Shown here piece after piece: positions 42,991 to 58,317 of a stretch of DNA of 64,000 nucleotides. The position numbers and the translations under genes were made by a program. Numbering within the stretch: position 1 is the stretch's first letter; every line of letters starts with the position of its first letter. The notes under the pieces were generated by a model. That model was not told the DNA's origin and did no database searches. It saw nothing but the letters and a program-made list of their open reading frames with translations. The stretch comes from Candidatus Latescibacterota bacterium (GTDB taxonomy: Bacteria; Latescibacterota; UBA2968), in NCBI GenBank assembly GCA_965208125.1, contig OZ242320.1, positions 3,104,001 through 3,168,000 of the forward strand. Reading direction: 5' to 3'.

Positions 42991-43617
42991 ATGGACAGTG
43001 TTTTCATTTATTGGGATAACTCCAATATCTTCCATGAGGCACAACGGTTGGCACAGGAACGACGCGAAGGCCCCAATGCCCGTTATCGCGTGCGTATCAA
43101 CGTTGACAATATACTGCGCCTGGCGCATGCCGACCGTCCTTTGAAGAAGGCACTTGCCGCTGGCTCTGTGCCGCCGGAGATGCGCCAGTTGTGGAATCGG
43201 ATGGAGAGCAAGGGGGTGGAAGTTCATCTATTTGATCGCGGCGACTCTGCGCGTGGCGAACAGGAAATGCCCGATCGGGTATTGCAGTTGCGGATGCTGG
43301 AAGATGCGCTGGATTACAACGGCAATCCGGGTATTGTGGTGTTGTTGACGGGCGATGGGGCAGGTTATCTGGAAGGCGCGGGTTTTCACAGTACATTGGA
43401 GCGCATGCACAAGCGCGGCTGGCGGGTGGAGATCCTTTCCTGGAAGCATTCCTGCAACCAGCGGATGCGAAGGTGGGCGCAGAAAAACGGCGTATTTGTC
43501 GCGCTAGACGACTTTTATGAGGCCATTACCTTCATGGAGCCGTCCAGGCCAGGGGCTGAGCTTGCGATCCCACGCGATTCTGCGGAATTGGATTTGTCGA
43601 AAAGGCCGATGGCTTGA
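42991..43617 (+). CDS. NYN domain (PIN-like) nuclease
   Basis: IYWDNSNIF, EQEMPD, LLTGDG, VEILSW. Confidence 0.82.
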   Translation: MDSVFIYWDNSNIFHEAQRLAQERREGPNARYRVRINVDNILRLAHADRPLKKALAAGSVPPEMRQLWNRMESKGVEVHLFDRGDSARGEQEMPDRVLQLRMLEDALDYNGNPGIVVLLTGDGAGYLEGAGFHSTLERMHKRGWRVEILSWKHSCNQRMRRWAQKNGVFVALDDFYEAITFMEPSRPGAELAIPRDSAELDLSKRPMA

Positions 43618-43640: not shown

Positions 43641-44525
43641 CTATGGAACGAACTCTTGGCCGATCTTCCACACTCCTTTCTCACGGAAAGCGGGAATAGT
43701 CTGGCGGCGGGCGGCGTTGGTGACAGCGGGTGCCGAAAGTCCATTCTGTCTGATATAATCCGATAGCTTGATGATTGCCTCTCCCTTCAAATAGCTCAGG
43801 CGCTTGTGTAGCGACTCTGTGAGAGCCAGTGATAGAATTCCCTCCATCGTCCTGGTCGTTCTGTTATCTTCGTAGTCTCTGAATGCCCGATAGTACGTTT
43901 CTTTCTCCGAGTTGCGGATGATAAGGCGCGGCAGACCGAGTTGCAGGAGTTGAAAGTTGATAATGACCCGCCCTATGCGGCCATTGCCGTCGCAAAAGGG
44001 ATGGATGGTCTCGAAATCCAGATGAAATCGGGCAATTTTATCCAGAAAGTAGGTGTCGAGGTCACTGGAATACTCAACGAGGATATTATCTATCATTCGT
44101 TCCACATGCTCGGGTGCCGGCGCTATATGAGTGCCTACCCGCACGTATTCTCCCTGCTGGCGAAAGCGACCTGCAATATCATCGTTAATGCCGCCAATAA
44201 GCATCTGATGTAAGAGTAGCATCAGGTCTTTGTTCAGTTCGCTATCTTTCGCTCTGTTGCGCTTATATTCTGTGACACGAGCCAGATTTTTCGCTTCAAA
44301 GACTTCCCGCACAGATACATTCCGAGATAACATCTGCTCCAACAGGATTTTCTCTGTCTCATTGAGGGTGAGGGTGGAATTTTCAATGGCGTTCGAGTTG
44401 TACACGCTCTCGGGTACCTCTACTTCGTCAATCATCGACAGTAGCGATTCTTTACCCTGACGCAAGGTATCGTACTCTCGTTTCAGAGTCTGGATGCGGT
44501 TTTTTGTCGGTTGTGTGCTTGCCAT
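43641..44525 (-). CDS. Fic family AMPylase (class II) with putative C-terminal HTH
   Basis: SNAIEN inhibitory motif; HPFCDGNGRIGR; C-terminal LSDY...AARRQTIPAFREKGVWKI. Confidence 0.92.
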   Translation of the reverse strand: MASTQPTKNRIQTLKREYDTLRQGKESLLSMIDEVEVPESVYNSNAIENSTLTLNETEKILLEQMLSRNVSVREVFEAKNLARVTEYKRNRAKDSELNKDLMLLLHQMLIGGINDDIAGRFRQQGEYVRVGTHIAPAPEHVERMIDNILVEYSSDLDTYFLDKIARFHLDFETIHPFCDGNGRIGRVIINFQLLQLGLPRLIIRNSEKETYYRAFRDYEDNRTTRTMEGILSLALTESLHKRLSYLKGEAIIKLSDYIRQNGLSAPAVTNAARRQTIPAFREKGVWKIGQEFVP

Positions 44526-44541
44526 ATTATTAGAATACCTT

Positions 44542-44706
44542 ATTCACGATAAATTGTCAAATATTAGTGAATAGAGAGGTGAAAATGGATGTCATTCATG
44601 ATAAATTTCCAAATTTCAGTGAATAGACGGGCAAAAATGGGTTCTATTCATGGTAAATTGTCAAATATTAGTGAATAGAGAGGTGAAAATGGGTGTCATT
44701 CATGGT
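44542..44706. repeat. 52-bp tandem repeat, about 3.2 copies, each internally palindromic
   Basis: units start at 44542, 44594, 44646, 44698; ATTCAY...GTGAAT arms; units 1 and 3 nearly identical. Confidence 0.9.
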
Positions 44707-44760
44707 TTTTTCAGGTCAAGTAGCGAAAATTTCGTATCTGCAAGCGTTTCAACATCGCTT

Positions 44761-45540
44761 TCACTCCTCGCTTGGCGCGCCAGCCACTTGTAATGAAGTG
44801 CCGAGTATTTGATTGTGTTTTATATCGGGATATTCCTGCCATTGTCTTCCATCCAGCGTATTGCCGCCAGCCTTGGGCGTGCGCTCACCCCATTGTTTGA
44901 AGAAGAAAGCGACATTTTGCGACTGACATTGATCGCGCAATTCACGTAGCCACTCTACTTTGACCGGACGCGCCCCTGGTCCGCTCTCGCCTCCTGCGAT
45001 TACCCAATGAATATCTGTAAGATCCACTGTACCAAGCGCGTAGAGTAACGGCTCGAATGAAACAAAGCGCGTTGAGGCATTGGTCTGTTTCAAGTGCCGC
45101 AGGCGCGTCATGGCTGCGGCATCTTCGATAGAGACACCGAGCCAGATATGTGGCGGAGCGGACAGGCTCCCATAGCGTTGATAGACAAAATCGCGCATCA
45201 GCGAACTGCGCTTGGTCAGCACTTGATAGATGTGCCAATCCGCCTGTTCCATCGTATCAAATACACGATGGATGTACTGAGTTGGTATGTCCTTATGGAA
45301 CAGATCGCTCATCGAATTAACAAAGATGAGTTGCGGACGTCGCCAGTGCCTGGGTTGCTCAAGGCGTTCGGGACGAAGTGTGAGGTCAAAACCCGTTTCA
45401 AAAGGGTTTCCCTTAACGCCGCGGAAACGCTCCGATAATCGCTCGGCATAGCAATGGTCGCAACCCGCACTTACTTTTGTGCAGCCAGTGACCGGATTCC
45501 ATGTGCCGTTGGTCCACTCAATAGTGCTTTTGCGCGACAT
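44761..45540 (-). CDS. DUF5131 / phage Gp37Gp68 family (radical SAM-like)
   Basis: IEWT..TWNPVTGCTKVSAGCDHCYAE, FVNSMSDLFH, LTKR, GGESG, FFFKQWG; AGGAGA RBS. Confidence 0.93.
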   Translation of the reverse strand: MSRKSTIEWTNGTWNPVTGCTKVSAGCDHCYAERLSERFRGVKGNPFETGFDLTLRPERLEQPRHWRRPQLIFVNSMSDLFHKDIPTQYIHRVFDTMEQADWHIYQVLTKRSSLMRDFVYQRYGSLSAPPHIWLGVSIEDAAAMTRLRHLKQTNASTRFVSFEPLLYALGTVDLTDIHWVIAGGESGPGARPVKVEWLRELRDQCQSQNVAFFFKQWGERTPKAGGNTLDGRQWQEYPDIKHNQILGTSLQVAGAPSEE

Positions 45541-45596
45541 ACAATTCTCCTGTGTGCCACTTGAAATAGACAAAAACTACTGCACATAAGTATAGT

Positions 45597-45617
45597 TTGA
45601 TCTTGCACAAAGATCAA
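45597..45617. promoter_or_regulatory. palindromic operator candidate between divergent DUF5131 and MTase operon
   Basis: TTGATCTT-GCACA-AAGATCAA. Confidence 0.45.
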
Positions 45618-45845
45618 GTATGGAGTATTTTCTTTTAGAAGGGAATGAGTTATATTCGGCTTATGATCCTCAGCATTCCGTCACAATTGTCTCAATCGTT
45701 CCTGCTTACACGAGACTTGTAGGCAAGGATTTGGTCTATCTCTTTCTTAGGGGTAGCGGTCTCCTATCCGTTTGATTTTGCCAGTACTGCACCATATCAT
45801 TAGTCCGTGCGAGCGATAGGGGTGAATTATCCATAGGCTGAAAAA

Positions 45846-46232
45846 ATGAGTGCTCTTGATAAGTTCCACAATAAGGCTATGGAAGTGGCGTTTTTCGCTG
45901 ATCAAGAACGGCGACGAGGGAATGAGAAACAGGCGGCAGAGTTGTTTGAGCAAGCACTGGACCTGGAGCTTAAGGCCCTTGATGAGATAACCGAGCCTGT
46001 TGAGCCGAGGTATTCAGTACTGCATCGCAGTGCTGGTTGGCTGGCTTTGGACTGCAATAAACCACGCCTGGCAGAGCAATTGGCCTGCAAAGCTCTCACA
46101 GGCGACCCTCATCCAAAAATCGCTCAGGAACTGCGTGACCTGCTGGCGGAAATCTACGCACGGATGCGCGATAAACCCAAGGGTGCCGCAAAGTCGAAGC
46201 CGTTTGGTTATACTGGCATCTTTGTTAGGTAG
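45846..46232 (+). CDS. small alpha-helical (TPR-like) hypothetical protein
   Basis: H.KAME.A..A; A..LE..A; EP..SVLHRSA..LAL; A.ELRDLL. Confidence 0.7.
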   Translation: MSALDKFHNKAMEVAFFADQERRRGNEKQAAELFEQALDLELKALDEITEPVEPRYSVLHRSAGWLALDCNKPRLAEQLACKALTGDPHPKIAQELRDLLAEIYARMRDKPKGAAKSKPFGYTGIFVR

Positions 46233-46300
46233 GATTAATATGCCGAAACCCGGCACCCAAAAGTCTAAAACGGTTAGGCAAGCAATATGGAAATCACAGC

Positions 46301-47563
46301 ATGAATAAGGGTCTAAAATTTCTGGATCTTTTCGCAGGTGCTGGAGGGCTGTCTGAGGGATTTATACAAGCGGGATTTGAGCCTGTCGCACACATTGAAT
46401 CAGATAAAGCGGCATGTTTCACTCTACGCACACGGATGGCATACCATTGGTTGAAGGATCGTGACCGGATAGAACTGTATGCAGATTATCTGAATGGAAC
46501 ACTGAGCCGTCCAGATTTCTATGAACAAGTTCCCGAACAGATTATCGAATCAGTCATCGATGCCGAGATAGGTGACAAAAAACTGCCGGATATTTTTCGG
46601 CGGGTTGACGCTCTACTGGATAATTGTAGGCTTGATTTGATTGTCGGTGGGCCTCCTTGCCAAGCCTATTCCCTAATAGGTCGTTCTCGTGACTTGAATA
46701 GTATGAAGGGAGATAAGCGTAACTATCTGTATAACTATTACGCCGAATTTTTGAAGAGGTACAAACCATTATACTTTGTCTTCGAAAATGTCACCGGTCT
46801 TCTATCTGCAAGAAATGAGGATGGCAGCCGCTATTTTGACGCCATGCTAAGCCTTTTTCGTGAATGTGACTATAAAACCGATTTTCTGAATCTGTCAGCG
46901 GAGAATTATGGTGTCCTACAGAGACGAAAAAGAATAATTCTTGTCGGAAGAAGAGGTAAAGAGACTGATTTTTATCTAGAGCCAGACGAGTGGAATCCTG
47001 ATACCTGTGTCAGAGAAATATTCTGCGACCTTCCTACCATTGCCGCAGGTGAAGGTGTCCCGGGGCCATGTAATGTCAGACCATATTATGGAACATATCA
47101 GTATGAGGCAGGCATAAGAAATGACGATCTTCCGGTCACTTGGCACCAAGCGAGACCTAATACGGAACAAGACCTCGAAATTTACCGGATCGCTGTTGAT
47201 CAATGGAATAAAAAAAAGACTCGTCTGAATTACAATATGCTTCCGGATCGCCTGAAAACACATAGACATCGAAACTCGTTTCTGGATAGGTTCAAAGTCG
47301 TCGCTGGGGATCTGCCATTTTCTCATACTGTAGTTGCCCATATCGCCAAGGACGGTCACTATTATATTCATCCGGACATTAATCAGAATCGATCAATCAC
47401 ACCCAGAGAGGCTGCGCGATTGCAGACATTCCCAGATGATTATTATTTTGAGAGCGTCAGAGATGTTCCCGGACGCACGCCTGCTTTCAGTCAGATCGGC
47501 AATGCAGTGCCTGTGCTTCTGGCACGGAAAATAGCTGATAAATTGCAGGAGGTCTGGTTATGA
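46301..47563 (+). CDS. DNA cytosine-5 methyltransferase
   Basis: LDLFAGAGG (I), GGPPCQ (IV), FENV (VI), QRRKR (VIII), REAARLQTFP (IX), QIGNAVP (X). Confidence 0.96.
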   Translation: MNKGLKFLDLFAGAGGLSEGFIQAGFEPVAHIESDKAACFTLRTRMAYHWLKDRDRIELYADYLNGTLSRPDFYEQVPEQIIESVIDAEIGDKKLPDIFRRVDALLDNCRLDLIVGGPPCQAYSLIGRSRDLNSMKGDKRNYLYNYYAEFLKRYKPLYFVFENVTGLLSARNEDGSRYFDAMLSLFRECDYKTDFLNLSAENYGVLQRRKRIILVGRRGKETDFYLEPDEWNPDTCVREIFCDLPTIAAGEGVPGPCNVRPYYGTYQYEAGIRNDDLPVTWHQARPNTEQDLEIYRIAVDQWNKKKTRLNYNMLPDRLKTHRHRNSFLDRFKVVAGDLPFSHTVVAHIAKDGHYYIHPDINQNRSITPREAARLQTFPDDYYFESVRDVPGRTPAFSQIGNAVPVLLARKIADKLQEVWL

Positions 47564-49713
47564 GCACAAGCGGAACATACAGAATAAGACCGGCTGGTCG
47601 GCATATCCTGACCATTGGCCGTGATCTGATTCAGGATGTCTATGCGGCGGTCGTAGAACTGGTGAAGAACGCTTATGACGCCGATTCTCCTGATGTAAAT
47701 ATCAAATTTATGGCCAACCCTGACCACAGCGGATATTCCATCATTATCTCAGACCATGGTCACGGGATGTCTAGGGATACTGTCATTAACAAGTGGATGG
47801 TGCCGTCAACCCGAGACAAACTTGATCGGCGCACGAGTCCTTCCGGAAGGGTTATGCAGGGACGTAAAGGGGTAGGGCGCTACGCCGCATCCATCCTCGG
47901 TACAGACTTGTTTCTCGAAACAGTGACTGCTGAAGGCGAAAAAACAACGGTCTATGTCGAGTGGGGGAACTTCGAGGATGCCGAATATCTGGATGATGTG
48001 GAGATCCTCATTGAAACTACTGAGGTATCCGAATCGCCGGGTACACAACTGACTATGGCTGGGGATATTGAGCTTCTTGCTGACTGGGACAAGAAACAGT
48101 TCGAAAAACTTCGTTTTGAGCTGAAAAAACTGAAATCGCCTGTAAGTGCTACTCTTAGCGATGATGACTTTTGTATAATTCTGAAGGTTGAAGGCTTTCC
48201 TGATGTAGAGGATATTAGTGAAACTATCGAGTCATTTCCGATCTTCGATCTCTTTGACTATAAGATAGCTGGCAAAATTGGTGCTGACGGCAATGGCACC
48301 CTGACTTATTCATCACAGAAGGCTCGTAACACCGCCGACGAGAATATTCCTTTCGATACTGGCGGGCCTACCGGATGCGGTGAGCTTGATATTGATGTAC
48401 GAGTGTATGACCGAGACAAAGATGCTATTGATTCTTTGATAGGCCGCGGTCTCAAGGATGAATCCGGCAACTATGTCGGAAAACTTCAAGCAAGGCAACT
48501 TCTTAACGCCTCCAACGGCATAGGTGTTTATCGGAACGGATTTCGTATCCGGCCGATGGGCGATCCAGACTTTGATTGGTTGAAACTGAACGAGCAGCGC
48601 GTCCAAAACCCATCACTCAGAATCGGCAGCAACCAAGCAATCGGATACGTGCAAATTCAGTCAGATGAGCAATCCGGTCTGATTGAAAAAAGTGCGCGCG
48701 ATGGACTCAGAGAAAATTCGGCCTTTGGTCATCTCAAAGAAATCACTACAAAGGTCATCGCTGAACTCGAAACGCGACGGTTCGATTACAGAATGAAGGC
48801 AGGTCTGAGCAGGCCTGTTATCAAAGTCGAACGTGAGTTAGAACGCCTTTTTTTGTTTGATGAACTAAAACGGGATGTCTTGGAAAGACTTACCAAATCC
48901 GGAGTTGACCAAAGCATCTCTGATAAAATTATTGATATCATCAGTCGGGAAGAGGAAGAAAAAAATAAAATTGCCGCTGAAATCCGCCAAGCTGTTGCTA
49001 TTTATCAGGGACAGGCCACCTTGGGGAAAATCATTAACGTGATCCTTCATGAAGGCAGACGGCCACTCAATTATTTCCGAAACCAGATACCAAACCTCCG
49101 ATACTGGTACAAATCATTTCGGAAAACTGAGAATTTAAAAAATCTTGAGAAATCTCTGTCAATTGTTGAGGGCATAGGCATGAATGCAGAGTTTTTCGTC
49201 AATCTCTTCAACAAACTTGATCCTCTGGCAGCGGGGAAGCGCTCTAAAAAAGAGCCGCTTGCGCTGAAGAAAGAGATAGAAAACGTGCTTGCTGTCTTTG
49301 AACAAGAAATGAAGTCTCAGAAGGTAATCGCTGAAGTTACAGGATCCGACGACTTTAGATTTTCCTCTTGGCGTCAAGATATCAGTGCGATTTTCACAAA
49401 TCTTGTGGACAACAGTCTGTACTGGATGAACGAAAAGAATACGCCCAAGCGAAAAATCATTATTGAACTCGCAACGAACAAGAATTCTCTTCTTCAGATT
49501 GATTATCATGACACCGGGCCAGGTATTGAACCTGACCACATTGCAAGTGAAGTGATTTTTGAACCTGAGTTTACCACCAAACCATCTGGTACGGGTCTGG
49601 GGCTGGCAATTGCAGGTGAGGCTGCCGCACGTAACGATCTTGAATTGAAAGCTTTTGAGTCTCAAGAAGGAGCTTGGTTCAGGTTACAACCTAAAACGGA
49701 GGATGAGGAATGA
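47560..49713 (+). CDS. MORC-type GHKL ATPase fused to a C-terminal histidine kinase
   Basis: ELVKNAYDA, DHGHGM, GRKGVGR; S5-like VYRNGFRI..DWL; H-box ILHEGRRPL, NLVDNS, DTGPG, FTTK.GTGLGL; no TM. Confidence 0.88.
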   Translation: MSTSGTYRIRPAGRHILTIGRDLIQDVYAAVVELVKNAYDADSPDVNIKFMANPDHSGYSIIISDHGHGMSRDTVINKWMVPSTRDKLDRRTSPSGRVMQGRKGVGRYAASILGTDLFLETVTAEGEKTTVYVEWGNFEDAEYLDDVEILIETTEVSESPGTQLTMAGDIELLADWDKKQFEKLRFELKKLKSPVSATLSDDDFCIILKVEGFPDVEDISETIESFPIFDLFDYKIAGKIGADGNGTLTYSSQKARNTADENIPFDTGGPTGCGELDIDVRVYDRDKDAIDSLIGRGLKDESGNYVGKLQARQLLNASNGIGVYRNGFRIRPMGDPDFDWLKLNEQRVQNPSLRIGSNQAIGYVQIQSDEQSGLIEKSARDGLRENSAFGHLKEITTKVIAELETRRFDYRMKAGLSRPVIKVERELERLFLFDELKRDVLERLTKSGVDQSISDKIIDIISREEEEKNKIAAEIRQAVAIYQGQATLGKIINVILHEGRRPLNYFRNQIPNLRYWYKSFRKTENLKNLEKSLSIVEGIGMNAEFFVNLFNKLDPLAAGKRSKKEPLALKKEIENVLAVFEQEMKSQKVIAEVTGSDDFRFSSWRQDISAIFTNLVDNSLYWMNEKNTPKRKIIIELATNKNSLLQIDYHDTGPGIEPDHIASEVIFEPEFTTKPSGTGLGLAIAGEAAARNDLELKAFESQEGAWFRLQPKTEDEE

Positions 49714-50771
49714 GTGTGTTGCGACTGCTTATAGTTGAGGATGATGAACAGGATCTATCTACCTGTAGAGATACTGTCGAAAGATACGAAAATGAAAAGC
49801 AGCGCAAAGTCGAACTCGTCGAATGCAAGGATGTCAGTGCGGCTTTCGAGTGCCTTGACAATTCCTTCGACGGTGCGATTATTGACCTGAAGCTCGGGGA
49901 TCAGGGTGATGAAGGCAATCAGGTTATACGTAAAATCGAAGATTCACAGTTCCGGATTCCAGTCTTTATTTTATCTGGAACCCCTGTCAACACGGATTTT
50001 GCACATATAAAAGTTTTCAAAAAAGGGGACATTGGAGCAGGATACGATGATTTGTTGGACAGATTTTGGAATATCTATAACACAGGACTGACCCGCATCA
50101 TGGGCGGCAGGGGCATCATCGAACAAACATTGAGCCAAGTATTTTTGGGAAATCTCCTCCCACAGATAGATAAATGGATACATTATGGTGAGGACGATTC
50201 TTCCAGAACTGAAAAGGCTCTTCTTCGGCACACGCTGAATCATCTGCTCCAGCTTCTTGAAGATGACGCAGACAGTTGTTTTCCCGAAGAAGTCTATCTG
50301 CATCCTCCGCTTAATGACGACATCCGGACTGGTAGCCTTGTTAAAGAAAAGGAAAGTGGGAAGTGGTTTGCTGTCATGAGTCCAGCCTGCGACCTTGTCG
50401 TGAGGGAAGATGGCAGCCGTAATACTGACAGGATTCTTATTGTCGAAGTTGATCTTGGAACGACGTTATTTCCATGGTTTAATGATACAGATCTGAGTAA
50501 CACCAAAAAGGGAGAGTTGAAACGAGCGTTCGGGAATAACAAATCAGCCTATCATCACTGGCTTCCTAAGACGGATTTCTTTGAAGGAGGTTTCCTCAAT
50601 TTCAGAAAACTCTTCACGTTGGAAATTGAGCAATTCCAAGAAAAATTCCACACCCCTCCTGAAATACAAATCTCGCTATCTTTTGTGAAGGATATTGTGG
50701 CGCGTTTTTCATCATACTACGCTCGTCAGGGGCAGCCAGATATCGATTTTGACAGATTTATCAACTCTTGA
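49710..50771 (+). CDS. receiver-domain protein with unknown C-terminal effector
   Basis: LLIVEDD, IIDLKL, ILSG, FKK intact REC; C-terminal TGSL..VMSPACDL...FSSYYARQGQPD. Confidence 0.85.
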   Translation: MSVLRLLIVEDDEQDLSTCRDTVERYENEKQRKVELVECKDVSAAFECLDNSFDGAIIDLKLGDQGDEGNQVIRKIEDSQFRIPVFILSGTPVNTDFAHIKVFKKGDIGAGYDDLLDRFWNIYNTGLTRIMGGRGIIEQTLSQVFLGNLLPQIDKWIHYGEDDSSRTEKALLRHTLNHLLQLLEDDADSCFPEEVYLHPPLNDDIRTGSLVKEKESGKWFAVMSPACDLVVREDGSRNTDRILIVEVDLGTTLFPWFNDTDLSNTKKGELKRAFGNNKSAYHHWLPKTDFFEGGFLNFRKLFTLEIEQFQEKFHTPPEIQISLSFVKDIVARFSSYYARQGQPDIDFDRFINS

Positions 50772-50933
50772 AATAGGCGTATAGGAAGTTGCAGGATTGA
50801 AGTTCGCTACATTTCGATGGATTCACGTTTTTTAACTCATCTCATCCACCCATTCTACCGCATACTGTATTTTCTTTTTAAATCGCTCAATCAACTCACG
50901 AAAGGCCAATCGGTCTTAATTTGCCTACGCTAC

Positions 50934-51051
50934 TTATTGCCAATCCTCCCCAGCGACCTGTTTAAGCACGGCTCGGACGAATTGAGCAGACCTGCATAGC
51001 TCAGGCAAGGGTAATGATCGGCGAGGCATTGAGTATCCACCCCTCACTCAC
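50934..51051 (-). pseudogene. internally deleted DUF3368 (PIN-like) gene remnant
   Basis: GTG-start MSEGWILNASPIITLA* overlapping the UPF0175 stop, then FVRAVLKQVAGEDWQ*; these resemble the N- and C-termini of DUF3368. Confidence 0.6.
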
Positions 51052-51295
51052 TGTTTACTTCCTCTGCTATTTCGTCCACACTATATTGGAATGTTGAAAC
51101 CTCAAACCGGCCCAGTGCCTCAATGAACTCACTGCGGGATAGTCCCGCAATCTCAGCCGCCCGACTTTGAGAAACCTCTCCCATCTCGTACCATTTCACA
51201 GCGGCAGCCAGACGCAATTCCCGGGTGAAATGATTGGGATCTTTCAGTACCGACGAAAGCACATCTTCTGGTAGTTCAAAAGTGACTGTTACCAT
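51044..51295 (-). CDS. UPF0175 family protein (putative antitoxin)
   Basis: ELRLAAAVKWYE.GEVSQSRAAEIAGLSR.EF. Confidence 0.88.
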   Translation of the reverse strand: MVTVTFELPEDVLSSVLKDPNHFTRELRLAAAVKWYEMGEVSQSRAAEIAGLSRSEFIEALGRFEVSTFQYSVDEIAEEVNSE

Positions 51296-51372
51296 GTGAT
51301 TCTCTCCTGATAGACCAATCTATGTTGCGTGTAATCGCCCTACTACAGTCGTATGGTTTCTTAAATATGGAT

Positions 51373-52572
51373 TTAAGACTGCTTTTCTGAAGATTTATCA
51401 GGCGCGAACAAATAAAACAATTGTTCCAAAATCAGGATTCCAATAACCGCATTTTTGCTATTATATTCCGATGGGTCTGAAACTCCGTGTGCTATACTAT
51501 GGCGAGATAACTTTGCCCTTGTCTCAGAAGATTTGAAATTTCTAAAATAAAATTCTTTCAGGTATTCCGAAAACTGATATGGCAAAAGAATACTCAGAGG
51601 TTTTTCTATGTCATCTTGCACCGCAATTTTTCTAAGGTCCTCACCACGAGGATCTCTTGCCCTTTTTTGTAATCCATGTGATCGGATTATACCTTCTATT
51701 TTTGGATATAGTGTTTGTATGCACCCCCTCCAGTCTCCTTCTTTGAATTTCTCAACGCCATACGCTAAATCTTCCCGATGTTCGAGAAAAGAAGATTTGT
51801 TTTTCCACCCATCCAGCATTTTATCACAGCGACCTTGAACGTCTGAGACAACTATATCAACAAATCCATCCTCATCTGGACCAAACTTTGGGTCTTTTGT
51901 CCACTCAATTAACGTATTCAGATTTTCTTCGGACAGTCCAATAAATGGAAACCATCCTTTTTTGTGCAGCGCGGCATGGATTTCTGCCGAAACTCTATGC
52001 CTTTCCTCAAATACAGTATATTCTAATAGACTGCCTAATTGCACTTTGATCTTATATTCACGCTTATGATGAGGAGGCCATAAAGGGGTATGATCAAAAA
52101 AAATTGCTTTTCTCCATCTGTGCGAAAAGACAAATATGATACCAGCATCATTGGGTATATCTATCATATCAGCATCATTGATATCTATGACATTAGCATC
52201 ATTGGGTGTATCCACGACAAGTTCCAACGATTCTATGCCTGCTATATCGCTCTTTCTTATAAGATCTCCTTTTTTCATTGATCCTCTGAGTTTGGCTGAC
52301 GGGATAAATTTTAGCTCGTCTATATAAGCCTGAACCCGGCCATCCGGGTGCGAAACAAAAAGCATGTGATTGGTCTGAGAGGGGTCAACTGAAGAATCGG
52401 AAGGCAGTTTGGATAAAAACTCATCAACAAGACCAGCCAATATCTCAAACTTGTCCCACTCTGAAGAAGTTGCAAAATCCATCACATAAAACGCAGGTTT
52501 TTCTCCTTGCCGTACATTTTCGGCTAGATAGCCTCGAGCTGGATCTTTCAGCGTGAACTCAAATTTAGCCAT
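51373..52572 (-). CDS. hypothetical protein with C-terminal HEPN-like domain
   Basis: CIQTLYPKIEGIIR ... SRHSIAHG (Rx4H); AT-rich. Confidence 0.65.
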   Translation of the reverse strand: MAKFEFTLKDPARGYLAENVRQGEKPAFYVMDFATSSEWDKFEILAGLVDEFLSKLPSDSSVDPSQTNHMLFVSHPDGRVQAYIDELKFIPSAKLRGSMKKGDLIRKSDIAGIESLELVVDTPNDANVIDINDADMIDIPNDAGIIFVFSHRWRKAIFFDHTPLWPPHHKREYKIKVQLGSLLEYTVFEERHRVSAEIHAALHKKGWFPFIGLSEENLNTLIEWTKDPKFGPDEDGFVDIVVSDVQGRCDKMLDGWKNKSSFLEHREDLAYGVEKFKEGDWRGCIQTLYPKIEGIIRSHGLQKRARDPRGEDLRKIAVQDDIEKPLSILLPYQFSEYLKEFYFRNFKSSETRAKLSRHSIAHGVSDPSEYNSKNAVIGILILEQLFYLFAPDKSSEKQS

Positions 52573-52661
52573 TGTGTCTTTTTTTTTGTTTGTGTAAATG
52601 CGCTCCAAACGGTTTGGCTTTCAGCAATTCTTCCAGTTTATTGGCAAGCCAATTTTTGGCC

Positions 52662-55166
52662 TCACTCTCCCCACACCCTTCCCACCGCATCCCGTATCTT
52701 TTTCTCGAATCGCGCAATTAAACCCCGGTTCGCATCCACCAGTGCCTGTTCGGCTTCGATCTCGGTGACGATGGCTTGTTGAATATCGAGGGATGGGAGC
52801 GGGAATCTAATTTGTTTTATAGCATTGCCATTGAACTGTGGTTGTCCTCCACCAGTCACCAGAGTTTTTGCCTGATCCCAATAAGTATCACTTTGGGTAA
52901 ATGCCCAATAGTAACCTGGATGAACGCGCTCTAATGGAAAGCGGAGTCGAATCAGATAAGAAGCGAAGACCGCCAAATATTCCTCCTCGAATATCATTGT
53001 CTTGCCATAGGTCGCTCCGGTTCGAGCGACGAGGATATCCCCCTTTTCAAGTATTGATTTTTGCGCCTCACTTGTCAAAGTAATGAACTTAGGCTCCTCT
53101 GAACGAAGCGTTCCATCTTCAGAGATGTCTGTAATGCGAACAAATCTGGCATCTCCTTGGTCATCTGCCTTTTCGGTAAAGCCATATTCTGGTTTCGTGA
53201 GTTCTGAAATTGTCACCATCGGCCACTCGGGATCAATCGCAATGTGCGGTTGATAGTTCTCCACCACCGCTCTCGCCCCGTCAATCACTCGCTGATAGCC
53301 CTCTATTTCCGAGACGATTTCCCGCTGCACTTCGAGCGGCGGTAAGGGGATTTGGATACGCTGGATGTCGCTCTTGTTTATTGATGAGAATGCTGATCCT
53401 GTGCTTCCGGTTATTTCTGATTCCAAGCTATGGAGAACATAGAAGATATAGGTCGTGAGTAGCCGACTCCTGATTGGTCTAATGGCGGCGAGTCCCCGTC
53501 CGATACAGATACGCTGTGTTGTTAGGTTGACAGGTCCAACAGGAGCACGCACGGACATGAGAATATCGCCTTTCTCAGCAAATCTTCGCGGGTCCGTCGT
53601 CCATTTTGTGGGTTTCCCGATAAACATTTGTCCAAACTCAGTTTTGCCTTGATAGAACGGCGTCCCTACCCCAGTATCATTGTAGGACTTTCCGGGCGGT
53701 GATTGTCCAGAAATGACTTCCGCCACTTCACCCAATGGTACGATGGGAAATTGCGATAGACGAACTTCACCTCTCCGATACCGCTCTCCGCTCAAGTTAT
53801 ACTCTTCGCTCTCTGCGACTTTTGATTTTTCAACGACGAGTCCGTGTGTGATGGATTTATCGGTTGTGTATTGCGCGTGTGGTTCTGCGACATTTAGTGT
53901 GAGTTGGGGGTCATCTGCTGTTTCGCCTGCTCGCAGTCGTGCGAGATATTCGCAAAGTTCCTCTGCTACTTGCGGCAGGTCGTTCTTGTCAATCTCCCGC
54001 CGTTGTGCGCCCAAATCAAAGCCGTCGTTTTCTACCTTGAGGAAAGCGATGTGGTCGGTCTTTTTCGCCAGTACTTTGTCCAGTATGAGAATGGAAGTCT
54101 TGACGCCTGAGTATGGATTGAACACGCCAGCGGGGAGTGAGACGACGGCGACGAGATATTCTTCCACCAGCATTTTGCGGAGTTGCTTGTGCGCGTTCTG
54201 GCTCTGGAAGATGATGCCTTCGGGTACGATGATACCGGCGCGTCCTGAAGGCGTTAGATGTTCGGCCATGTAATCGACGAATAGCACTTCGCTGCGTCTG
54301 GACTGTACGGAGAATCGGTTGTGCGGACGGATGCCCCCTTTCGGCGACATGAATGGTGGGTTGGCGAGGATTACATCGGCGTATTCGTTCCAATATTCCT
54401 CACTGGTCAGGGTGTCGTATTCAGAGATATGCGGATCGGCAAAACCGTGCAGGTACATATTTACCAGTGATAGGCGTACCATATCGGGTGATATGTCGTA
54501 GCCCTTAAAATTATCCGCCAGTCTCCCCCGTTCATCCGGTGTAAGCGTAATTAGGCCCTGCTCATTGGTGTTGGCTTTGAGTATGTGCTTGTAGGATGAG
54601 ATTAAAAATCCGGCGGTGCCGCAGGCTGGGTCGAGTACGCTTTCGTCTTTTTTGGGGTCGATGATAGTGACGATGAAGTCGATAATATGGCGCGGTGTGC
54701 GGAATTGTCCGGCATCTCCCTGCGAACCGAGTACAGAGAGCAAATATTCGAAGGCGTCGCCGAGTCGCTCGGAGTGGTCGTACTCAAACTCGTCAATGAT
54801 TTTGAGAAAGGCGCGCAGGGTTTCGGGGTCGCGGTAGGGCAAGAAAGCATTCTTAAAGATGTCTCGAAAGAGAAGTGGAATACCGGGGTTTTCTGGCATT
54901 CTGGTAATGGCATCGGCGTAGAGGTTGAGCATTTCGTGTCCACCCAGGCCAGAGCGCATCAGTTTTGCCCAACCGAAACGGGCGAACTCTCCGGCGAAGA
55001 ATTGGCGTTCTCCCCCGAGTTCTTCGCTTTCGGCGTCCAGGTCGTCCATGAATTTGTAGATCAGCGCAATGGTAATTTGCTCAACCTGACTCTTGGGATC
55101 GGGTACTTTGCCCACCAGAATATCGCGGGCGGTGTCAATACGGCGTTTGGTGTCTGTATCGAGCAT
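52662..55166 (-). CDS. type I RM methyltransferase-specificity (HsdM-HsdS) fusion
   Basis: GQFRTP, DPACGTAGF, ANPPF; two TRDs (LGEVAEVISGQSP...IPLPPLEVQREIV; YGFT...FPLPSLDIQQAIV). Confidence 0.92.
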   Translation of the reverse strand: MLDTDTKRRIDTARDILVGKVPDPKSQVEQITIALIYKFMDDLDAESEELGGERQFFAGEFARFGWAKLMRSGLGGHEMLNLYADAITRMPENPGIPLLFRDIFKNAFLPYRDPETLRAFLKIIDEFEYDHSERLGDAFEYLLSVLGSQGDAGQFRTPRHIIDFIVTIIDPKKDESVLDPACGTAGFLISSYKHILKANTNEQGLITLTPDERGRLADNFKGYDISPDMVRLSLVNMYLHGFADPHISEYDTLTSEEYWNEYADVILANPPFMSPKGGIRPHNRFSVQSRRSEVLFVDYMAEHLTPSGRAGIIVPEGIIFQSQNAHKQLRKMLVEEYLVAVVSLPAGVFNPYSGVKTSILILDKVLAKKTDHIAFLKVENDGFDLGAQRREIDKNDLPQVAEELCEYLARLRAGETADDPQLTLNVAEPHAQYTTDKSITHGLVVEKSKVAESEEYNLSGERYRRGEVRLSQFPIVPLGEVAEVISGQSPPGKSYNDTGVGTPFYQGKTEFGQMFIGKPTKWTTDPRRFAEKGDILMSVRAPVGPVNLTTQRICIGRGLAAIRPIRSRLLTTYIFYVLHSLESEITGSTGSAFSSINKSDIQRIQIPLPPLEVQREIVSEIEGYQRVIDGARAVVENYQPHIAIDPEWPMVTISELTKPEYGFTEKADDQGDARFVRITDISEDGTLRSEEPKFITLTSEAQKSILEKGDILVARTGATYGKTMIFEEEYLAVFASYLIRLRFPLERVHPGYYWAFTQSDTYWDQAKTLVTGGGQPQFNGNAIKQIRFPLPSLDIQQAIVTEIEAEQALVDANRGLIARFEKKIRDAVGRVWGE

Positions 55167-55190
55167 GGGACTTCCTTTAAGTCATTATCT

Positions 55191-55775
55191 ATCCACGAAG
55201 GACACTAAGGACACGAAGGGTTATGAAGGGTACAAAGAGTCATCAAGGGTTTTTCTTCGTGCATCTTCGTGTTCTTAGTGGATCATTTTACAAACCGTTT
55301 CCATTCCAGTTTACCATGGCTGCCAAAGTTGATAAGAACACCCACTTTGAAGCCGGTTGCTTTCAGATAGTTGAGAATTTGAGCTTGTTCATTTCCAGAG
55401 AGACGATTAAGTGCTTTGAGTTCAACAATAATCAGGTCAAAACAGATCAGGTCGGCAACGTATTTTTTATTGAGTATCTGGCCTTTGTACCGAACCTGAA
55501 TTGGTTTCTGAGCATCAAATGGTATTCCTCTTGTACTCAATTCGATTTCCATTGCCTCTTGATAGATAGCTTCCAGAAACCCGGGGCCAAGTTCGCGATG
55601 CACTTCAATAGCAGCGCCTACCACAGCGTACACTTCTTCCTTCAAAATCAACTCTGACATATTTCACACGCTCCTTCTCTCCTCCCCCTAAATTGGCTTC
55701 TTGCTCTCTTTCTTCTTCACATCCCCCTTCATGCATCTGGGTGTCCTTTGTGCCCCTTAGTGTCCCTTCGTGGAT
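55191..55775. mobile_element. GxxExxY gene cassette bounded by imperfect inverted repeats of CACGAAG-type units
   Basis: left ATCCACGAAGGACACTAAGGACACGAAG; reverse complement of right ATCCACGAAGGGACACTAAGGGGCACAAAG; third arm 55255-55283. Confidence 0.55.
55283..55660 (-). CDS. GxxExxY protein (PD-(D/E)XK nuclease fold)
   Basis: LGPGFLEAIYQEA, ADL..IIVELKA, QILNYLK, GVLINFG. Confidence 0.95.
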   Translation of the reverse strand: MSELILKEEVYAVVGAAIEVHRELGPGFLEAIYQEAMEIELSTRGIPFDAQKPIQVRYKGQILNKKYVADLICFDLIIVELKALNRLSGNEQAQILNYLKATGFKVGVLINFGSHGKLEWKRFVK

Positions 55776-55784
55776 CATCCCAGT

Positions 55785-58301
55785 TCAAGCAACAAACTGA
55801 TTCAATGACACATAATCTTTGACATACTCAGGAATGAGTGTGCGATACTTCTCTGGCACAGCACGGAAGTCGCGGATAGAGAAGACCGGGTTGGTGGCGA
55901 GTTCTGTGTATGCGCGGTTTTCGATGATGAGACGGATCTGATCGCTGGTGAGGTAAGCTTTGAAATAGGTCTTGAGGGCGGGAATGGAATGGGCGTCTTC
56001 CGGTTTGTTGTCGGCGACAAATTTGTTGAATTCCTCTTCTAATAACTCGTCCTTAGACTTGAAATGTGGGATGAGGTCAAAGACTTTTTCCAATATCTCG
56101 CGCAGGGTCAGACGACGATCTACGGCTGCTGCTTGGCGGAGCTTGTTGAGGGTATAGTATTCCTCGGGCTTATCAAAGACTTCGCGGTTCACATAGTCGA
56201 TTACGCGATCCCACTGTCCGGCTTCAACGGCTTTTACTATGGTTTGATCTTCGCGCACTGTGTCTGCGAATTTGTCGAAGAACATGCGGTCAATTTTCAT
56301 GCCGTCGTAGCCTATGTCTTCTTCGGAAATTTTAGAGAGTAGGTCTTCGCCCGGATACTCGTACACGCCAATAGGTAGGGTTGGGTCAGGGTCTCCTTCA
56401 CTTTTTTTAGTGTGCCTGTACGCAGGTAATTCCAGGATTTCGTCGTAGTTGAATTCGGTTTCGAAGTATTCACAGTTGCCGAAGAAGTCAAAGAGTTTGA
56501 AGGCGGTTTTCTCAGGGTGCGCGATGCGGTCCTTGTGGCTGTCGTCTAAGAGCAGGTCGCGGAAATCGTGCTTTCGCGTGCCGCGGCCTTTGATCTGGAT
56601 GAAGTCTGTGGGTGAGAAGATGGGGCGAAATAAGCCGAGGTTGAGGATATCTGGACAGTCGTAGCCAGTGGTCATCATGCCGACGGTGACGCATACGCGG
56701 GCTTTGCTGGTGCGGTATTGAGGTAGGAAGTTGGCGGTGCCGAGCAGGTTATTATTGGCAAAGTTGATGGTGAATTGTTGTGCGTCCGGTATGAGTGATG
56801 TGACCTGTACGGCGAAGTCGGACTGGTACTTGCCGGGAAACATCCGATGGGCCATTTCGTTGAGTATGTTGGTTAAGTGGGCGGCGTGGTTCTGGCTGAC
56901 GGCGAAGATGATGGACTTGCCAATTTCACCGCTGACGGGATCGCGCAGGGCGTTTTCGAGAAAGGTTTTGCAGAAAAGCACGTTGGTGGCGTTGGAAAAA
57001 AATCGTTTCTCGAACTCGCGCTGTTTGTAGGTTTCCTCGTGGTCTTCGCCCTCGGTATCGGTGAACGAGACGACGAAGCCTTGCTCAGAGAGGAGTTGTG
57101 TTGTGACATCGGTGCGAGCGTCAACAACGGTTGGGTTGATTAAGACGTTATCTTTTACCCCATCGAGTAGGGAATAGCGAAAGGTGGGTTGTCCGCTCTC
57201 GCATCCAAAGGTGCGGTAAGTGTCGAGTAGCAGACGCCGTTCAATCTCGCGCGGGTCGCGTATTGCTGGGTCAGATGTTTTGACGCCGCGCAGATAGTCG
57301 CGGGGTGTTGCGGTCAGGCCGAGTTTGTATCCGACGAAATAGTCGAATACGGCACGGGCATTGCCCGAGATGGAGCGATGTGCCTCGTCGGAGATGACGA
57401 AATCGAAATCCGTGGGTGAGAAGATTTTCTGGTACTTGTTGTCGAATTGGAAGGATTGGACCGTGCTGACCACAATCTCGGCTCGTCGCCAGTCATCGCG
57501 GTTCTCTTTGTAAATGACTGTCTCAAAATCGGCTGAGAGCAATTCGGTGAAGACCTTTTTGGCCTGGTCTTCCAATTCGAGGCGATCTACCAGGAAGAGC
57601 ACGCGGTTGGCATTGCCAGAACGCAGGAATAGCTTGATGATGGCGGCAGCGGTGAGTGTCTTGCCCGTGCCAGTAGCCATTTCAAATAGGAAGCGGTCTT
57701 TGCCGTCCTTCACGGCGCGTTGCAGGGCGTGGACGGCTTGTAATTGATATGAGCGGAGGAAGCGCAGTTTGTTGGCGTTAATGAAGGCGGAGCGTTCGGC
57801 TTCGTTTTTCCATGCGGCTTCTGACACATAGTTGGGGCGTTGGGTGAGGACGATGTAGTCGTCGCTGACACGTTCATCTATCAGACGTTGCGGATTGGGC
57901 GCTGTCTTCTGGTAGCCTGTGACTGAATCCGGCGTTGGGAATGCAGTGATGATGTAGGGGTTGCCCCGGTCGAGGTCCCAGAAGTAGTGGAGATTTCCGT
58001 TGGAGAGGATAACGAAGCGGCAGTTCTGTGAGCGAGCGTACTTTCGCGCCTGTTCCTTTCCCGCCAGTGGCTGTTTCTCTTCTGCCTTGGCTTCCAGTAC
58101 GATGAGCGGAAATCCCCTGTCGTCCAGCAAGAGAAAGTCGATATATCCTTTGCGGGCTTTCTCGAAGTTGTCGCCGAGGGTGTTAATCTCAACACCCGCT
58201 TCGAGACGAATATTGGCGGGTTTGTCTCCTTCGTCAAAAAATCGCCATCCCGCTGATTCGAGTAGTTTATTGATTTTTAACCGTGCAGTAGCTTCGTTCA
58301 T
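55785..58301 (-). CDS. hsdR: type I restriction subunit (EcoAI/EcoEI-like)
   Basis: IDFLL..VLEAK..QAR.Y; MATGTGKT, DEAH, LTATP, QIKGRGTR; start at MNEATAR. Confidence 0.93.
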   Translation of the reverse strand: MNEATARLKINKLLESAGWRFFDEGDKPANIRLEAGVEINTLGDNFEKARKGYIDFLLLDDRGFPLIVLEAKAEEKQPLAGKEQARKYARSQNCRFVILSNGNLHYFWDLDRGNPYIITAFPTPDSVTGYQKTAPNPQRLIDERVSDDYIVLTQRPNYVSEAAWKNEAERSAFINANKLRFLRSYQLQAVHALQRAVKDGKDRFLFEMATGTGKTLTAAAIIKLFLRSGNANRVLFLVDRLELEDQAKKVFTELLSADFETVIYKENRDDWRRAEIVVSTVQSFQFDNKYQKIFSPTDFDFVISDEAHRSISGNARAVFDYFVGYKLGLTATPRDYLRGVKTSDPAIRDPREIERRLLLDTYRTFGCESGQPTFRYSLLDGVKDNVLINPTVVDARTDVTTQLLSEQGFVVSFTDTEGEDHEETYKQREFEKRFFSNATNVLFCKTFLENALRDPVSGEIGKSIIFAVSQNHAAHLTNILNEMAHRMFPGKYQSDFAVQVTSLIPDAQQFTINFANNNLLGTANFLPQYRTSKARVCVTVGMMTTGYDCPDILNLGLFRPIFSPTDFIQIKGRGTRKHDFRDLLLDDSHKDRIAHPEKTAFKLFDFFGNCEYFETEFNYDEILELPAYRHTKKSEGDPDPTLPIGVYEYPGEDLLSKISEEDIGYDGMKIDRMFFDKFADTVREDQTIVKAVEAGQWDRVIDYVNREVFDKPEEYYTLNKLRQAAAVDRRLTLREILEKVFDLIPHFKSKDELLEEEFNKFVADNKPEDAHSIPALKTYFKAYLTSDQIRLIIENRAYTELATNPVFSIRDFRAVPEKYRTLIPEYVKDYVSLNQFVA

Positions 58302-58317
58302 GCTGTTCTCTTGTTCA

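Follow-up and report, generated by a model that had tools for sequence, protein, structure and literature searches.

The element described here is a three-gene operon on the forward strand of contig OZ242320.1 from a Candidatus Latescibacterota bacterium (assembly GCA_965208125.1). It was analysed within a window of 64,000 nucleotides, contig positions 3,104,001 to 3,168,000, and all coordinates below are those of this window. The operon encodes a C5 cytosine DNA methyltransferase of 420 amino acids (46301..47563), a soluble histidine kinase of 717 amino acids (47560..49713) and a receiver (response-regulator-like) protein of 353 amino acids (49710..50771). Start/stop overlaps of 4 nt with the sequence ATGA chain the methylase gene to the kinase gene (47560-47563) and the kinase gene to the receiver gene (49710-49713), and a GGAGG-like Shine-Dalgarno sequence is found just 5' of each. 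The original prediction, drawn from the nucleotide sequence and a list of its open reading frames (ORFs), had proposed an intact methylase, a soluble kinase and a receiver protein encoded by co-directional genes joined through ATGA overlaps. This observation was confirmed as a whole, with the ORFs and both overlaps lying where they had been placed. The accompanying interpretation, in which a phosphorelay gates a toxic output that stands in for a restriction enzyme, is partly supported by the results below.

The methylase matches PF00145 (7.5e-56) and TIGR00675 (6.9e-47) and retains motifs I (FAGAGG, 46331-46348), IV (PPCQ, 46652-46663), VI (ENV, 46784-46792), VIII (QRRKR, 46919-46933) and X (GNAVP, 47498-47512), in agreement with its earlier description as an intact Dcm-type enzyme. 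The target-recognition region can be aligned among relatives and is fairly conserved, with values of 0.62-0.82 against a mean of 0.76. A cognate restriction endonuclease, the mark of a Type II restriction-modification (R-M) system, was not found beside the methylase gene. None of the trio proteins matches a nuclease family in Pfam, PADLOC or NCBIfam, and neither Vsr nor HNH_2 was found in the window. The PADLOC model DrmMII (PDLC02649) matches the methylase from end to end (9e-162). The DISARM partners DrmA, DrmB, DrmC and DrmE had no match among the nine neighbouring proteins scanned with PADLOC, and membership in DISARM class 2 was rejected since the methylase alone matches.

The kinase contains two ATP-binding domains separated by a conserved middle region (aa ~150-470). 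The first is an HATPase_c_3 (paraMORC-type) GHKL ATPase recognized by Pfam and NCBIfam (aa 19-142, nt 47614-47985; PF13589 over aa 29-140, 3.6e-18), and its ATP motifs (E33, N37, D65, G67, G69, G101, G104 and G106) are invariant in the kinase homologues. The second is a C-terminal catalytic HATPase_c domain (aa 607-712, nt 49378-49695; PF02518, 1.6e-17), preceded by a DHp region with H497-E498 (H497 codon 49048-49050). Solved histidine kinases align to aa ~473-710. Among 28 aligned homologues, H497-E498, N614/N618, D651xG653xG655, F667 and G677xG679xG681 are all invariant, and all of the 69 kinases compared have the same 18 key residues in the H-box and at the two ATP sites. Since no 19-residue Kyte-Doolittle window exceeds 1.17, the protein has no transmembrane segment and is soluble. 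The earlier description of a soluble kinase with a complete H/N/G1/F/G2 transmitter therefore holds.

The label given to the N-terminal domain requires some adjustment. The NCBIfam model of the BbrUII/HgiDII restriction enzymes (NF050001) matches aa 19-142 only (3.1e-14), and PADLOC REase_II models likewise match over the shared GHKL domain only. When the kinase family profile was compared with solved structures, HtpG was matched at 3e-5 and MORC2/3 at 0.05-0.09, with MORC2/3 and MutL together spanning 0.05-0.3. Thus, the proposed GHKL ATPase stands with its ATP motifs intact, and given the weak MORC2/3 matches HATPase_c_3 / paraMORC-type GHKL is a better name for it than "MORC".

Proteins of the MORC/paraMORC type are defined by an S5 domain after the GHKL domain, and the S5-like domain proposed earlier for the kinase is a putative one. 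Sequence and feature searches with the middle region gave nothing informative, and an ESM Atlas look-up returned unnamed clusters or scores of 0.81 or less. The kinase lacks a hypervariable segment (lowest 20-residue window 0.53 vs a mean of 0.75), which fits a conserved ligand; DNA of one methylation specificity is a plausible one. Within the DHp region, the sequence reads H-E-G as opposed to H-E-F. The residue four positions after the histidine is R501, neither the threonine nor the asparagine that a 2026 preprint links to phosphatase activity. For this reason the kinase may have weak or absent phosphatase activity, a property that would suit a one-way trigger.

The receiver protein begins with a divergent receiver (REC) domain (aa 1-125, 49710..50084). 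PF00072 scores 21 bits, which is below its cut-off; a family profile of 99 sequences matches solved receiver domains at 7e-7 and a Foldseek search with the full-length model identifies receiver domains with a best E of 2.5e-6. The key residues E10-D11-D12, D59, S89 and K104/K105 are present, as had been claimed for the DD/D/S/K set. D59 (codon 49884-49886) is the predicted phospho-acceptor and, together with D11 and D54, is invariant even in plasmid homologues of 23-36% identity. The classical two-component residues are thus found in both partners, as the H-box, N, G1, F and G2 boxes of the kinase and as the acidic pocket, Asp, Thr/Ser and Lys of the receiver. At position 89 (49974-49976), the window protein is the only one of 68 aligned receivers with a serine, the other 67 having a threonine. 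Two long helices (aa 136-184, 50115..50261), identified in the structure models and bearing the invariant W156 and R173, join the REC domain to the output domain.

The full-length model of the receiver protein is only fair (pLDDT, the predicted local distance difference test, of 82) and places an invariant PxCD loop poorly. Because the receiver domain dominated the Foldseek matches obtained with it, this route to the output domain was dropped and the C-terminal part was modelled separately. An AlphaFold calculation on aa 126-353 with a 99-row alignment produced a model with a pLDDT of 96.2 and a predicted TM-score (pTM) of 0.87, composed of the two long helices followed by a small β-barrel with a C-terminal helix. 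In a Foldseek search of the PDB, all 32 of the matches listed are endoribonuclease toxins of toxin-antitoxin systems: the name MazF is given for 25, the type III toxin CptN accounts for one, and the remaining entries are described as MazF-type toxin, endoribonuclease or mRNA interferase. The TM-score on the target is 0.62-0.70 for the MazF-type chains and 0.47 for CptN. The first rank in the Foldseek viral library is also a PemK/MazF toxin, and 10 of the 50 rows listed there are PemK/MazF-like or named endoribonuclease. From these models, aa ~190-340 (50277..50729) are predicted to fold like the MazF/Kid/PemK and ToxN/CptN toxins, the likeness being one of fold only.

Two sequence motifs distinguish this domain from the toxins it resembles. 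The first, P225-x-C227-D228 (C227-D228 codons 50388-50393), is invariant. The second, S334-x-Y336-x-x-R339-Q-G341-x-P343, closes the last helix (R339-P343 at 50724-50738). Both persist, as do W156 and R173 of the two helices, in homologues of as little as 23% identity. Over the receiver protein as a whole, D54, D59, W156, R173, G208, P225, C227, D228, F298, S334, R339, Q340, G341 and P343 are kept in 68 of 68 sequences. Unlike MazF/PemK toxins, the window domain also follows a receiver and a helical hairpin within one polypeptide and has no antitoxin; no small antitoxin ORF lies upstream of the receiver gene, which overlaps the kinase gene. A PD-(D/E)xK nuclease reading of the PxCD...NFRK residues was dropped, as N297, R299 and K300 are variable among distant homologues and the structures matched do not have a nuclease fold.

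Several results speak against the toxin likeness. The Foldseek matches are marginal, with best E values of 1.0e-3 in the PDB and 2.2e-3 in the viral library and none reaching E<=1e-3. Pfam PemK (PF02452) does not match the output domain. An hhalign comparison of the domain with 111 MazF sequences gave a probability of 2-3%, a weak test since the MazF alignment is narrow (effective number of sequences 2.6, all at least 52% identical to E. coli MazF). The sole stretch aligned by hhalign comprises ten residues of one strand, receiver residues 217-226 with E. coli MazF residues 28-37, and the PxCD motif follows just after it. At what we take to be the position of the catalytic arginine of MazF, from the residue roles and numbers (catalytic Arg, Thr) assumed here for that enzyme, the window protein has K218, a residue that varies among homologues. 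Searches of Pfam, NCBIfam, PADLOC and PHROGs matched no family in the output domain, no PDB sequence matched it, and its ESM Atlas look-up ended in unnamed clusters or scores of 0.81 or less. A homodimer prediction with two copies of aa 126-353 reached a median score of 0.39 relative to a mark of 0.42, a value counted neither for nor against the toxin likeness. The earlier suggestion of a PemK/MazF-like C-terminal domain is thus upheld by the fold but not by profile comparison or by the catalytic arginine.

The same residues raise the possibility that the relay ends in a different chemistry. The family invariants C227, D228, S334, Y336, R339, G341, P343, R173 and W156 are not those of MazF and the position of the MazF arginine is not conserved. 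CcdB, which shares the MazF-type fold, poisons gyrase. The output domain may by analogy poison a protein, or it may be a new Cys/Asp/Arg enzyme that acts on DNA or a nucleotide, in either case not an RNase. However, the 32 listed PDB matches are RNase toxins throughout and include no CcdB chain, and no known nuclease, hydrolase or nucleotide-modifying family is matched. Such a chemistry is considered improbable.

To establish how far the trio is conserved, 80 loci taken from a scan of representative genomes, among 151 confirmed relatives, were compared, with taxa read from the record titles. The homologues found number 1524 for the receiver and 2706 for the kinase. A search with aa 126-353 against 1.84 billion cluster representatives returned 673 relatives (50%-identity clusters); most of the 150 listed are 330-395 aa long with an output domain starting near residue 117-143, which indicates that the receiver and output architecture is essentially fixed. 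The 80 loci come from Poribacteria, Latescibacterota, Chloroflexota, Thermodesulfobacteriota, Gamma- and Betaproteobacteria, Chlorobiota, Bacteroidota, Spirochaetota, Nitrospirota and others; judged by their titles, a dozen or more phylum-level groups are represented.

A receiver ORF was called in 79 of the 80 loci. Among the 72 loci with at least 2.3 kb of upstream sequence, 69 have the kinase gene as the immediate upstream neighbour of the receiver gene, the exceptions being L030, L071 and L072. A methylase of the same family adjoins the kinase in 55 of the 68 loci with at least 1.4 kb upstream of the kinase and is full length in 52; in the 55, methylase and kinase genes overlap by 1-13 nt with one exception. 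A different C5 methylase is found in two loci (L024, L062) and one on the opposite strand in two others (L026, L038). The trio is thereby shown to be conserved across genomes, as a mobile unit. It had also been anticipated that related operons might always carry a separate nuclease that is simply lost here. This is not the case, since HNH_2 occurs in only 6 of the 80 loci (L002, L034, L035, L039, L047 and L072), and the nuclease-free trio is the main form. In two of the six, the HNH_2 gene has a truncated methylase remnant on one side and the kinase gene on the other (L039:5050-5829, L047:5071-5802).

A minority of the loci do not fit a simple restriction-like scheme. No C5 methylase was found in the flanks of 8 of the 68 (L036, L041, L044, L045, L048, L056, L066 and L070). 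Only methylase fragments are kept in L039, L049 and L077, and L047 has an N-terminal methylase piece followed by its HNH_2 gene. Taking the eight loci and L039, L049 and L077 together, the kinase-receiver pair is intact with the methylase missing or decayed in 11 of the 68; all 11 kinases and 10 of the 11 receivers keep every key residue, the receiver of L070 falling outside the alignment. The pair therefore seems to be tolerated without the methylase, unlike a classical restriction enzyme. Six of the eight methylase-less loci adjoin other methylases: Type I genes including hsdM flank L044, L048 and L070, and L036, L041 and L045 each have an N6_N4 methylase downstream, accompanied in L036 by a ResIII helicase. 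The proposal that the methylase protects self from the effector is weakened by the eight loci without a C5 methylase and the three to four more with remnants.

Two further arrangements were noted in the flanks. An N6_N4 methylase and a ResIII helicase, resembling a Type III R-M pair, lie downstream of the receiver gene in eight loci (L031, L033, L036, L049, L051, L067, L069 and L079), mostly from Poribacteria. Directly upstream of the kinase gene in L048 and L070 is a gene for a 500-aa TIR-domain protein.

The system had been recorded before. Both protein families and their synteny were described in 2021 by Bellieny-Rabelo, Pretorius and Moleleki (PMC8011034), in a computational study, as "RR-like" (Response_reg_2, PF19192) and "HK-like" (HEF_HK, PF19191) proteins. 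The commonest HK-like architecture in that study, HATPase_c_3 + HEF_HK + HATPase_c or "group 1", accounts for 174 of 222 sequences, and 91.6% of 644 regions show linkage of the RR-like and HK-like genes. Upstream there is usually a C5 methylase, Vsr frequently comes immediately downstream, and among nearby nucleases HNH_2 is the most common. Its Table S2 includes rows with the gene order of the window from Geobacter sp. OR-1, Chlorobium phaeobacteroides, Desulfovibrio gigas and Hymenobacter daecheongensis. The Results and Discussion of PMC8011034 contain no experiment, and the C-terminal ~230 residues of the receiver were not analysed there. The window pair resembles the published one in its group 1 kinase architecture, its solubility and its conserved Asp/Asp/Thr/Lys and His-Glu residues. 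An HATPase_c_3 + DHp (His-Glu) + HATPase_c kinase and a divergent receiver are adjacent, a C5 methylase gene immediately upstream overlaps the kinase gene by 4 nt, and a Type I system lies next door. The trio is therefore of a kind known since 2021, and is assigned to that family.

One search result might appear to contradict this assignment. Neither PF19191 nor PF19192 matched the window proteins even at E<=10, although the copy of Pfam used may not hold both models; a 2026 preprint cites PF19191 as current in Pfam. There was also no match to either for 18 distant representatives or for plasmid homologues from Enterobacter and Hymenobacter, genera listed in PMC8011034. As proteins with the published synteny fail in the same manner, the result was counted neither for the assignment nor as a sign of a separate family. 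PADLOC has no model for the kinase-receiver pair, and a literature search found neither a fusion of a receiver to a MazF-like domain nor an experiment on the kinase-receiver family. A Vibrio cholerae paper on WASA, retrieved through the term paraMORC, is unrelated, and a December 2025 preprint on modularity makes no mention of kinases or receivers. What is new here is threefold: the output domain has a toxin-like fold and invariant motifs of its own, the nuclease-free form predominates, and methylase-less pairs occur.

A related system has experimental support. Ambrosia (AbrR-AbrA-AbrB-AbrC-AbrD) of Pseudomonas aeruginosa is anti-phage by experiment, and its single gene cluster combines a methylase with a "sensor histidine kinase/HSP90-like ATPase" and with a receiver protein (10.1101/2025.09.30.679545). 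Its expression is reported to be induced by infection, and defence is lost in the receiver mutant D60A, the residue corresponding in kind to D59 of the window protein. The same source describes five genes, two of them for an XRE regulator and a type IV HNH nuclease, with an N6-adenine methylase and a receiver reported to have a winged helix-turn-helix (HTH). The window trio is set apart from that description by the absence of XRE and HNH genes, by its C5 methylase and by its MazF-like output fold; the HNH_2-bearing relatives may form a bridge to the HNH-containing clusters of the Ambrosia type. Methylation did not protect phages from Ambrosia, and its authors favour a transcriptional role for the receiver, both of which are unfavourable to a restriction-like reading of the window trio.

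From these findings and the methylase-less pairs, it may be asked if the kinase senses infection or the state of the DNA and the phosphorylated receiver serves instead to control the expression or activity of the linked methylase or a neighbouring R-M system, with a C-terminal domain that binds nucleic acid or protein and is not a toxin. Control at the transcriptional level is what is proposed for Ambrosia, and "signaling cascades controlling R-M systems" is the speculation offered in PMC8011034. The pair is tolerated without a methylase, its methylase-less forms adjoin other R-M genes, both Type I and N6_N4, and a Type I system lies 2 kb from the window trio. On the other hand, neither an HTH nor another DNA-binding family was detected in the receiver protein with Pfam or NCBIfam, and Foldseek does not present the output domain as a winged helix, its best structural matches being toxins. 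The invariant Cys-Asp and Arg-Gln-Gly-x-Pro residues resemble an active site or a tight interaction site more than a surface that reads DNA. In 52 of the 68 loci there is nothing obvious to regulate beyond the co-transcribed methylase. A purely regulatory function is therefore thought unlikely, but since the methylase-less pairs and the Ambrosia findings weigh against the simple self-protection scheme it is a serious contender.

The module is highly mobile. Receiver proteins that are 93-97% identical are found in genomes labelled Poribacteria and Latescibacterota. A tblastn search with the receiver against a plasmid collection identified homologues from Enterobacter (48%, 8e-89), Bacillus (35%), Fusobacterium (31%), Hymenobacter (24%, 1e-19) and Acaryochloris (23%). 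In the four of these five regions that were inspected, the kinase is alongside in every case and a cytosine methylase is annotated nearby in three, with none in the Enterobacter region. A megablast search of plasmids with the whole locus gave no match, nor did a tblastn search of a phage collection. DNA of the kinase-receiver pair from an Enterobacterales metagenome-assembled genome, searched for distant matches, had none in complete E. coli genomes. In a 571-aa protein, P0282, residues 1-327 of the methylase are followed in frame by the receiver sequence from residue 103, the result of an in-frame deletion that took out the C-terminal part of the methylase, all of the kinase and most of the receiver domain.

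Mobility on this scale, together with the plasmid homologues, is also what would be expected of a selfish addiction module. In that event, loss of the element would dilute methylation, the kinase would detect chromosomal sites that have become unmethylated and the effector would kill or arrest the segregant. The position of the methylase gene, first in the operon and translationally coupled, and the conservation of its target-recognition region are both compatible with such a role. It is however improbable, since 11 of the 68 loci keep an intact pair with the methylase absent or decayed, which in this model would be lethal unless another methylase covers the sites.

Of the 76 loci with room for a Vsr gene, 37 have one immediately downstream on the same strand, and 44 of all 80 loci have one at some position. 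This linkage argues that the methylase is active in vivo and makes 5-methylcytosine. MutL stimulates Vsr in E. coli. In their account of the paraMORCs, Iyer, Abhiman and Aravind (2008, PMC2292703) point to kinship with MutL and to linkage with cytosine methylases, Vsr and sometimes HNH. The trio could thus be imagined as a housekeeping system for 5-methylcytosine, in which very-short-patch repair is carried out by Vsr together with the MutL-like GHKL ATPase, and the relay serves to report on repair or to tune it. However, the window and about half of the loci lack Vsr, and Vsr accompanies C5 methylases in general. The locus is situated in a defence island, and repair needs neither a toxin-like output domain nor a kinase. 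Of the explanations considered, this one is given the least credence, and is very improbable.

Other known systems provide partial parallels. PrrC, the anticodon nuclease held by the Type I R-M system EcoprrI, is an R-M-linked RNase that serves as a second-line abortive-infection effector. This ABC-ATPase-HEPN protein is controlled through contact with other protein and by a phage peptide, with no phosphorelay, and to our knowledge it has no homology to the trio. The N-terminal half of the kinase resembles the paraMORC, BbrUII and HgiDII proteins in its HATPase_c_3-type GHKL domain, intact ATP motifs and linkage to a cytosine methylase. Where these relatives have a C-terminal nuclease, TIR or other domain, the window kinase has a DHp and catalytic module. 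As these relatives work on DNA in R-M operons, we infer that the GHKL half of the kinase may act as a sensor.

The closest precedent for the relay is Detocs (DtcA-DtcB-DtcC), an abortive-infection system in which a kinase signals to a receiver-effector protein (10.1101/2023.01.24.525353). That preprint describes an effector domain in place of a DNA-binding output, toxic on its own, and thereby offers an experimental precedent for the earlier proposal of a His-Asp relay that gates a defence effector. In the same description, Detocs differs from the trio in its sensing by TPR, its buffer receiver DtcB, its effector, a PNP ATP nucleosidase or rarely another domain, and in having no methylase. The window contains neither a receiver-only gene nor a PNP domain, its kinase lacks TPR, and PADLOC, in a library that may predate Detocs, gave no match; the trio is not a Detocs system.

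Together, the conserved and coupled cassette, its place in a defence island, the toxin-like output and the precedents of Detocs and Ambrosia favour an alarm linked to R-M, in which a phosphorelay switches on a toxin-like, MazF-fold effector, the whole forming a mobile two-component module of the Bellieny-Rabelo family. This is the preferred explanation, held tentatively and at somewhat short of an even chance. It starts from properties evident in the sequences, namely gene order and coupling, the intact catalytic motifs of all three proteins, the conservation of the unit and the output fold, and from these we infer phosphotransfer, a trigger, toxicity, an RNA target and an anti-phage role. The C5 methylase would constitutively mark host DNA. 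The paraMORC-type GHKL domain at the N-terminus of the kinase would act as a sensor of DNA state where related enzymes have a nuclease domain to drive; that it reads DNA, or the state of the methylase, is conjectural. On encounter with foreign or unmodified DNA, or upon failure of the linked modification system, the kinase would autophosphorylate on His497 and pass the phosphate to Asp59 of the receiver. Phosphorylation may then release or assemble the MazF/Kid-like C-terminal domain, which would most likely cut RNA and stop growth, as abortive infection or post-segregational killing, rather than cut DNA. The most specific form of the proposal holds that methylation-based self/non-self discrimination is read by the paraMORC-type ATPase and relayed from His to Asp to a MazF-fold effector with a new catalytic constellation made up of PxCD and SxYYxRQGxP. 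This form is possible but doubtful.

If that form is correct, the three-gene cassette, found in a dozen or more phyla, would constitute a "restriction system without a restriction enzyme", one that halts translation in the cell and does not cut the invader. With its toxin-like output, the module would be a second kind of phosphorelay immune trigger after Detocs, and a case in which a GHKL DNA ATPase has been rewired from driving a nuclease to driving a kinase. The kinase-receiver family is large, highly mobile and found in defence islands; five years after its description, the toxin-like output provides a first concrete and testable mechanism for it. The methylase-less pairs, including those beside Type I and Type III systems, bear on whether the module is a restriction-like system or an accessory alarm attached to R-M.

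The trio is located in a low-GC stretch of the window (43641-58430, 0.43-0.47 vs ~0.52 around it) that is packed with defence-type genes. These include a Fic protein (PADLOC PDC-S04/SoFic-like), a DUF5131 protein (PDC-M41B/M30B) and the Type I R-M system, which consists of a fused HsdM-HsdS protein of 834 aa and an 881-aa HsdR. At the end of the hsdR-hsdMS operon is a gene for a 411-aa protein (51373-52608, reverse strand) with no match in Pfam, NCBIfam, PADLOC, PHROG or PDB sequences. It is kept at the same position in the related locus L004 (759 bits) and may serve the Type I system as an accessory or abortive-infection gene.

Upstream of the methylase gene is a 128-aa ORF (45846..46232, forward strand) that had been described as TPR-like. 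It has no match in Pfam, PADLOC or PHROG and its best NCBIfam score, 17 bits, is below the cut-off, so that this label was not confirmed. Its presence in only 2 of the 80 related loci (L003 and L004) places it outside the conserved module, and it is not part of the system. Between the trio and the 411-aa protein, an 83-aa UPF0175 (antitoxin-like) ORF is encoded alone on the reverse strand (51044-51295); no toxin ORF of at least 80 aa lies beside it in 50771-51044. Just outside the island, on the forward strand, a gene for an NYN-domain (RNase-like) protein (42991-43617) adjoins a thiamine-pyrophosphate enzyme gene.

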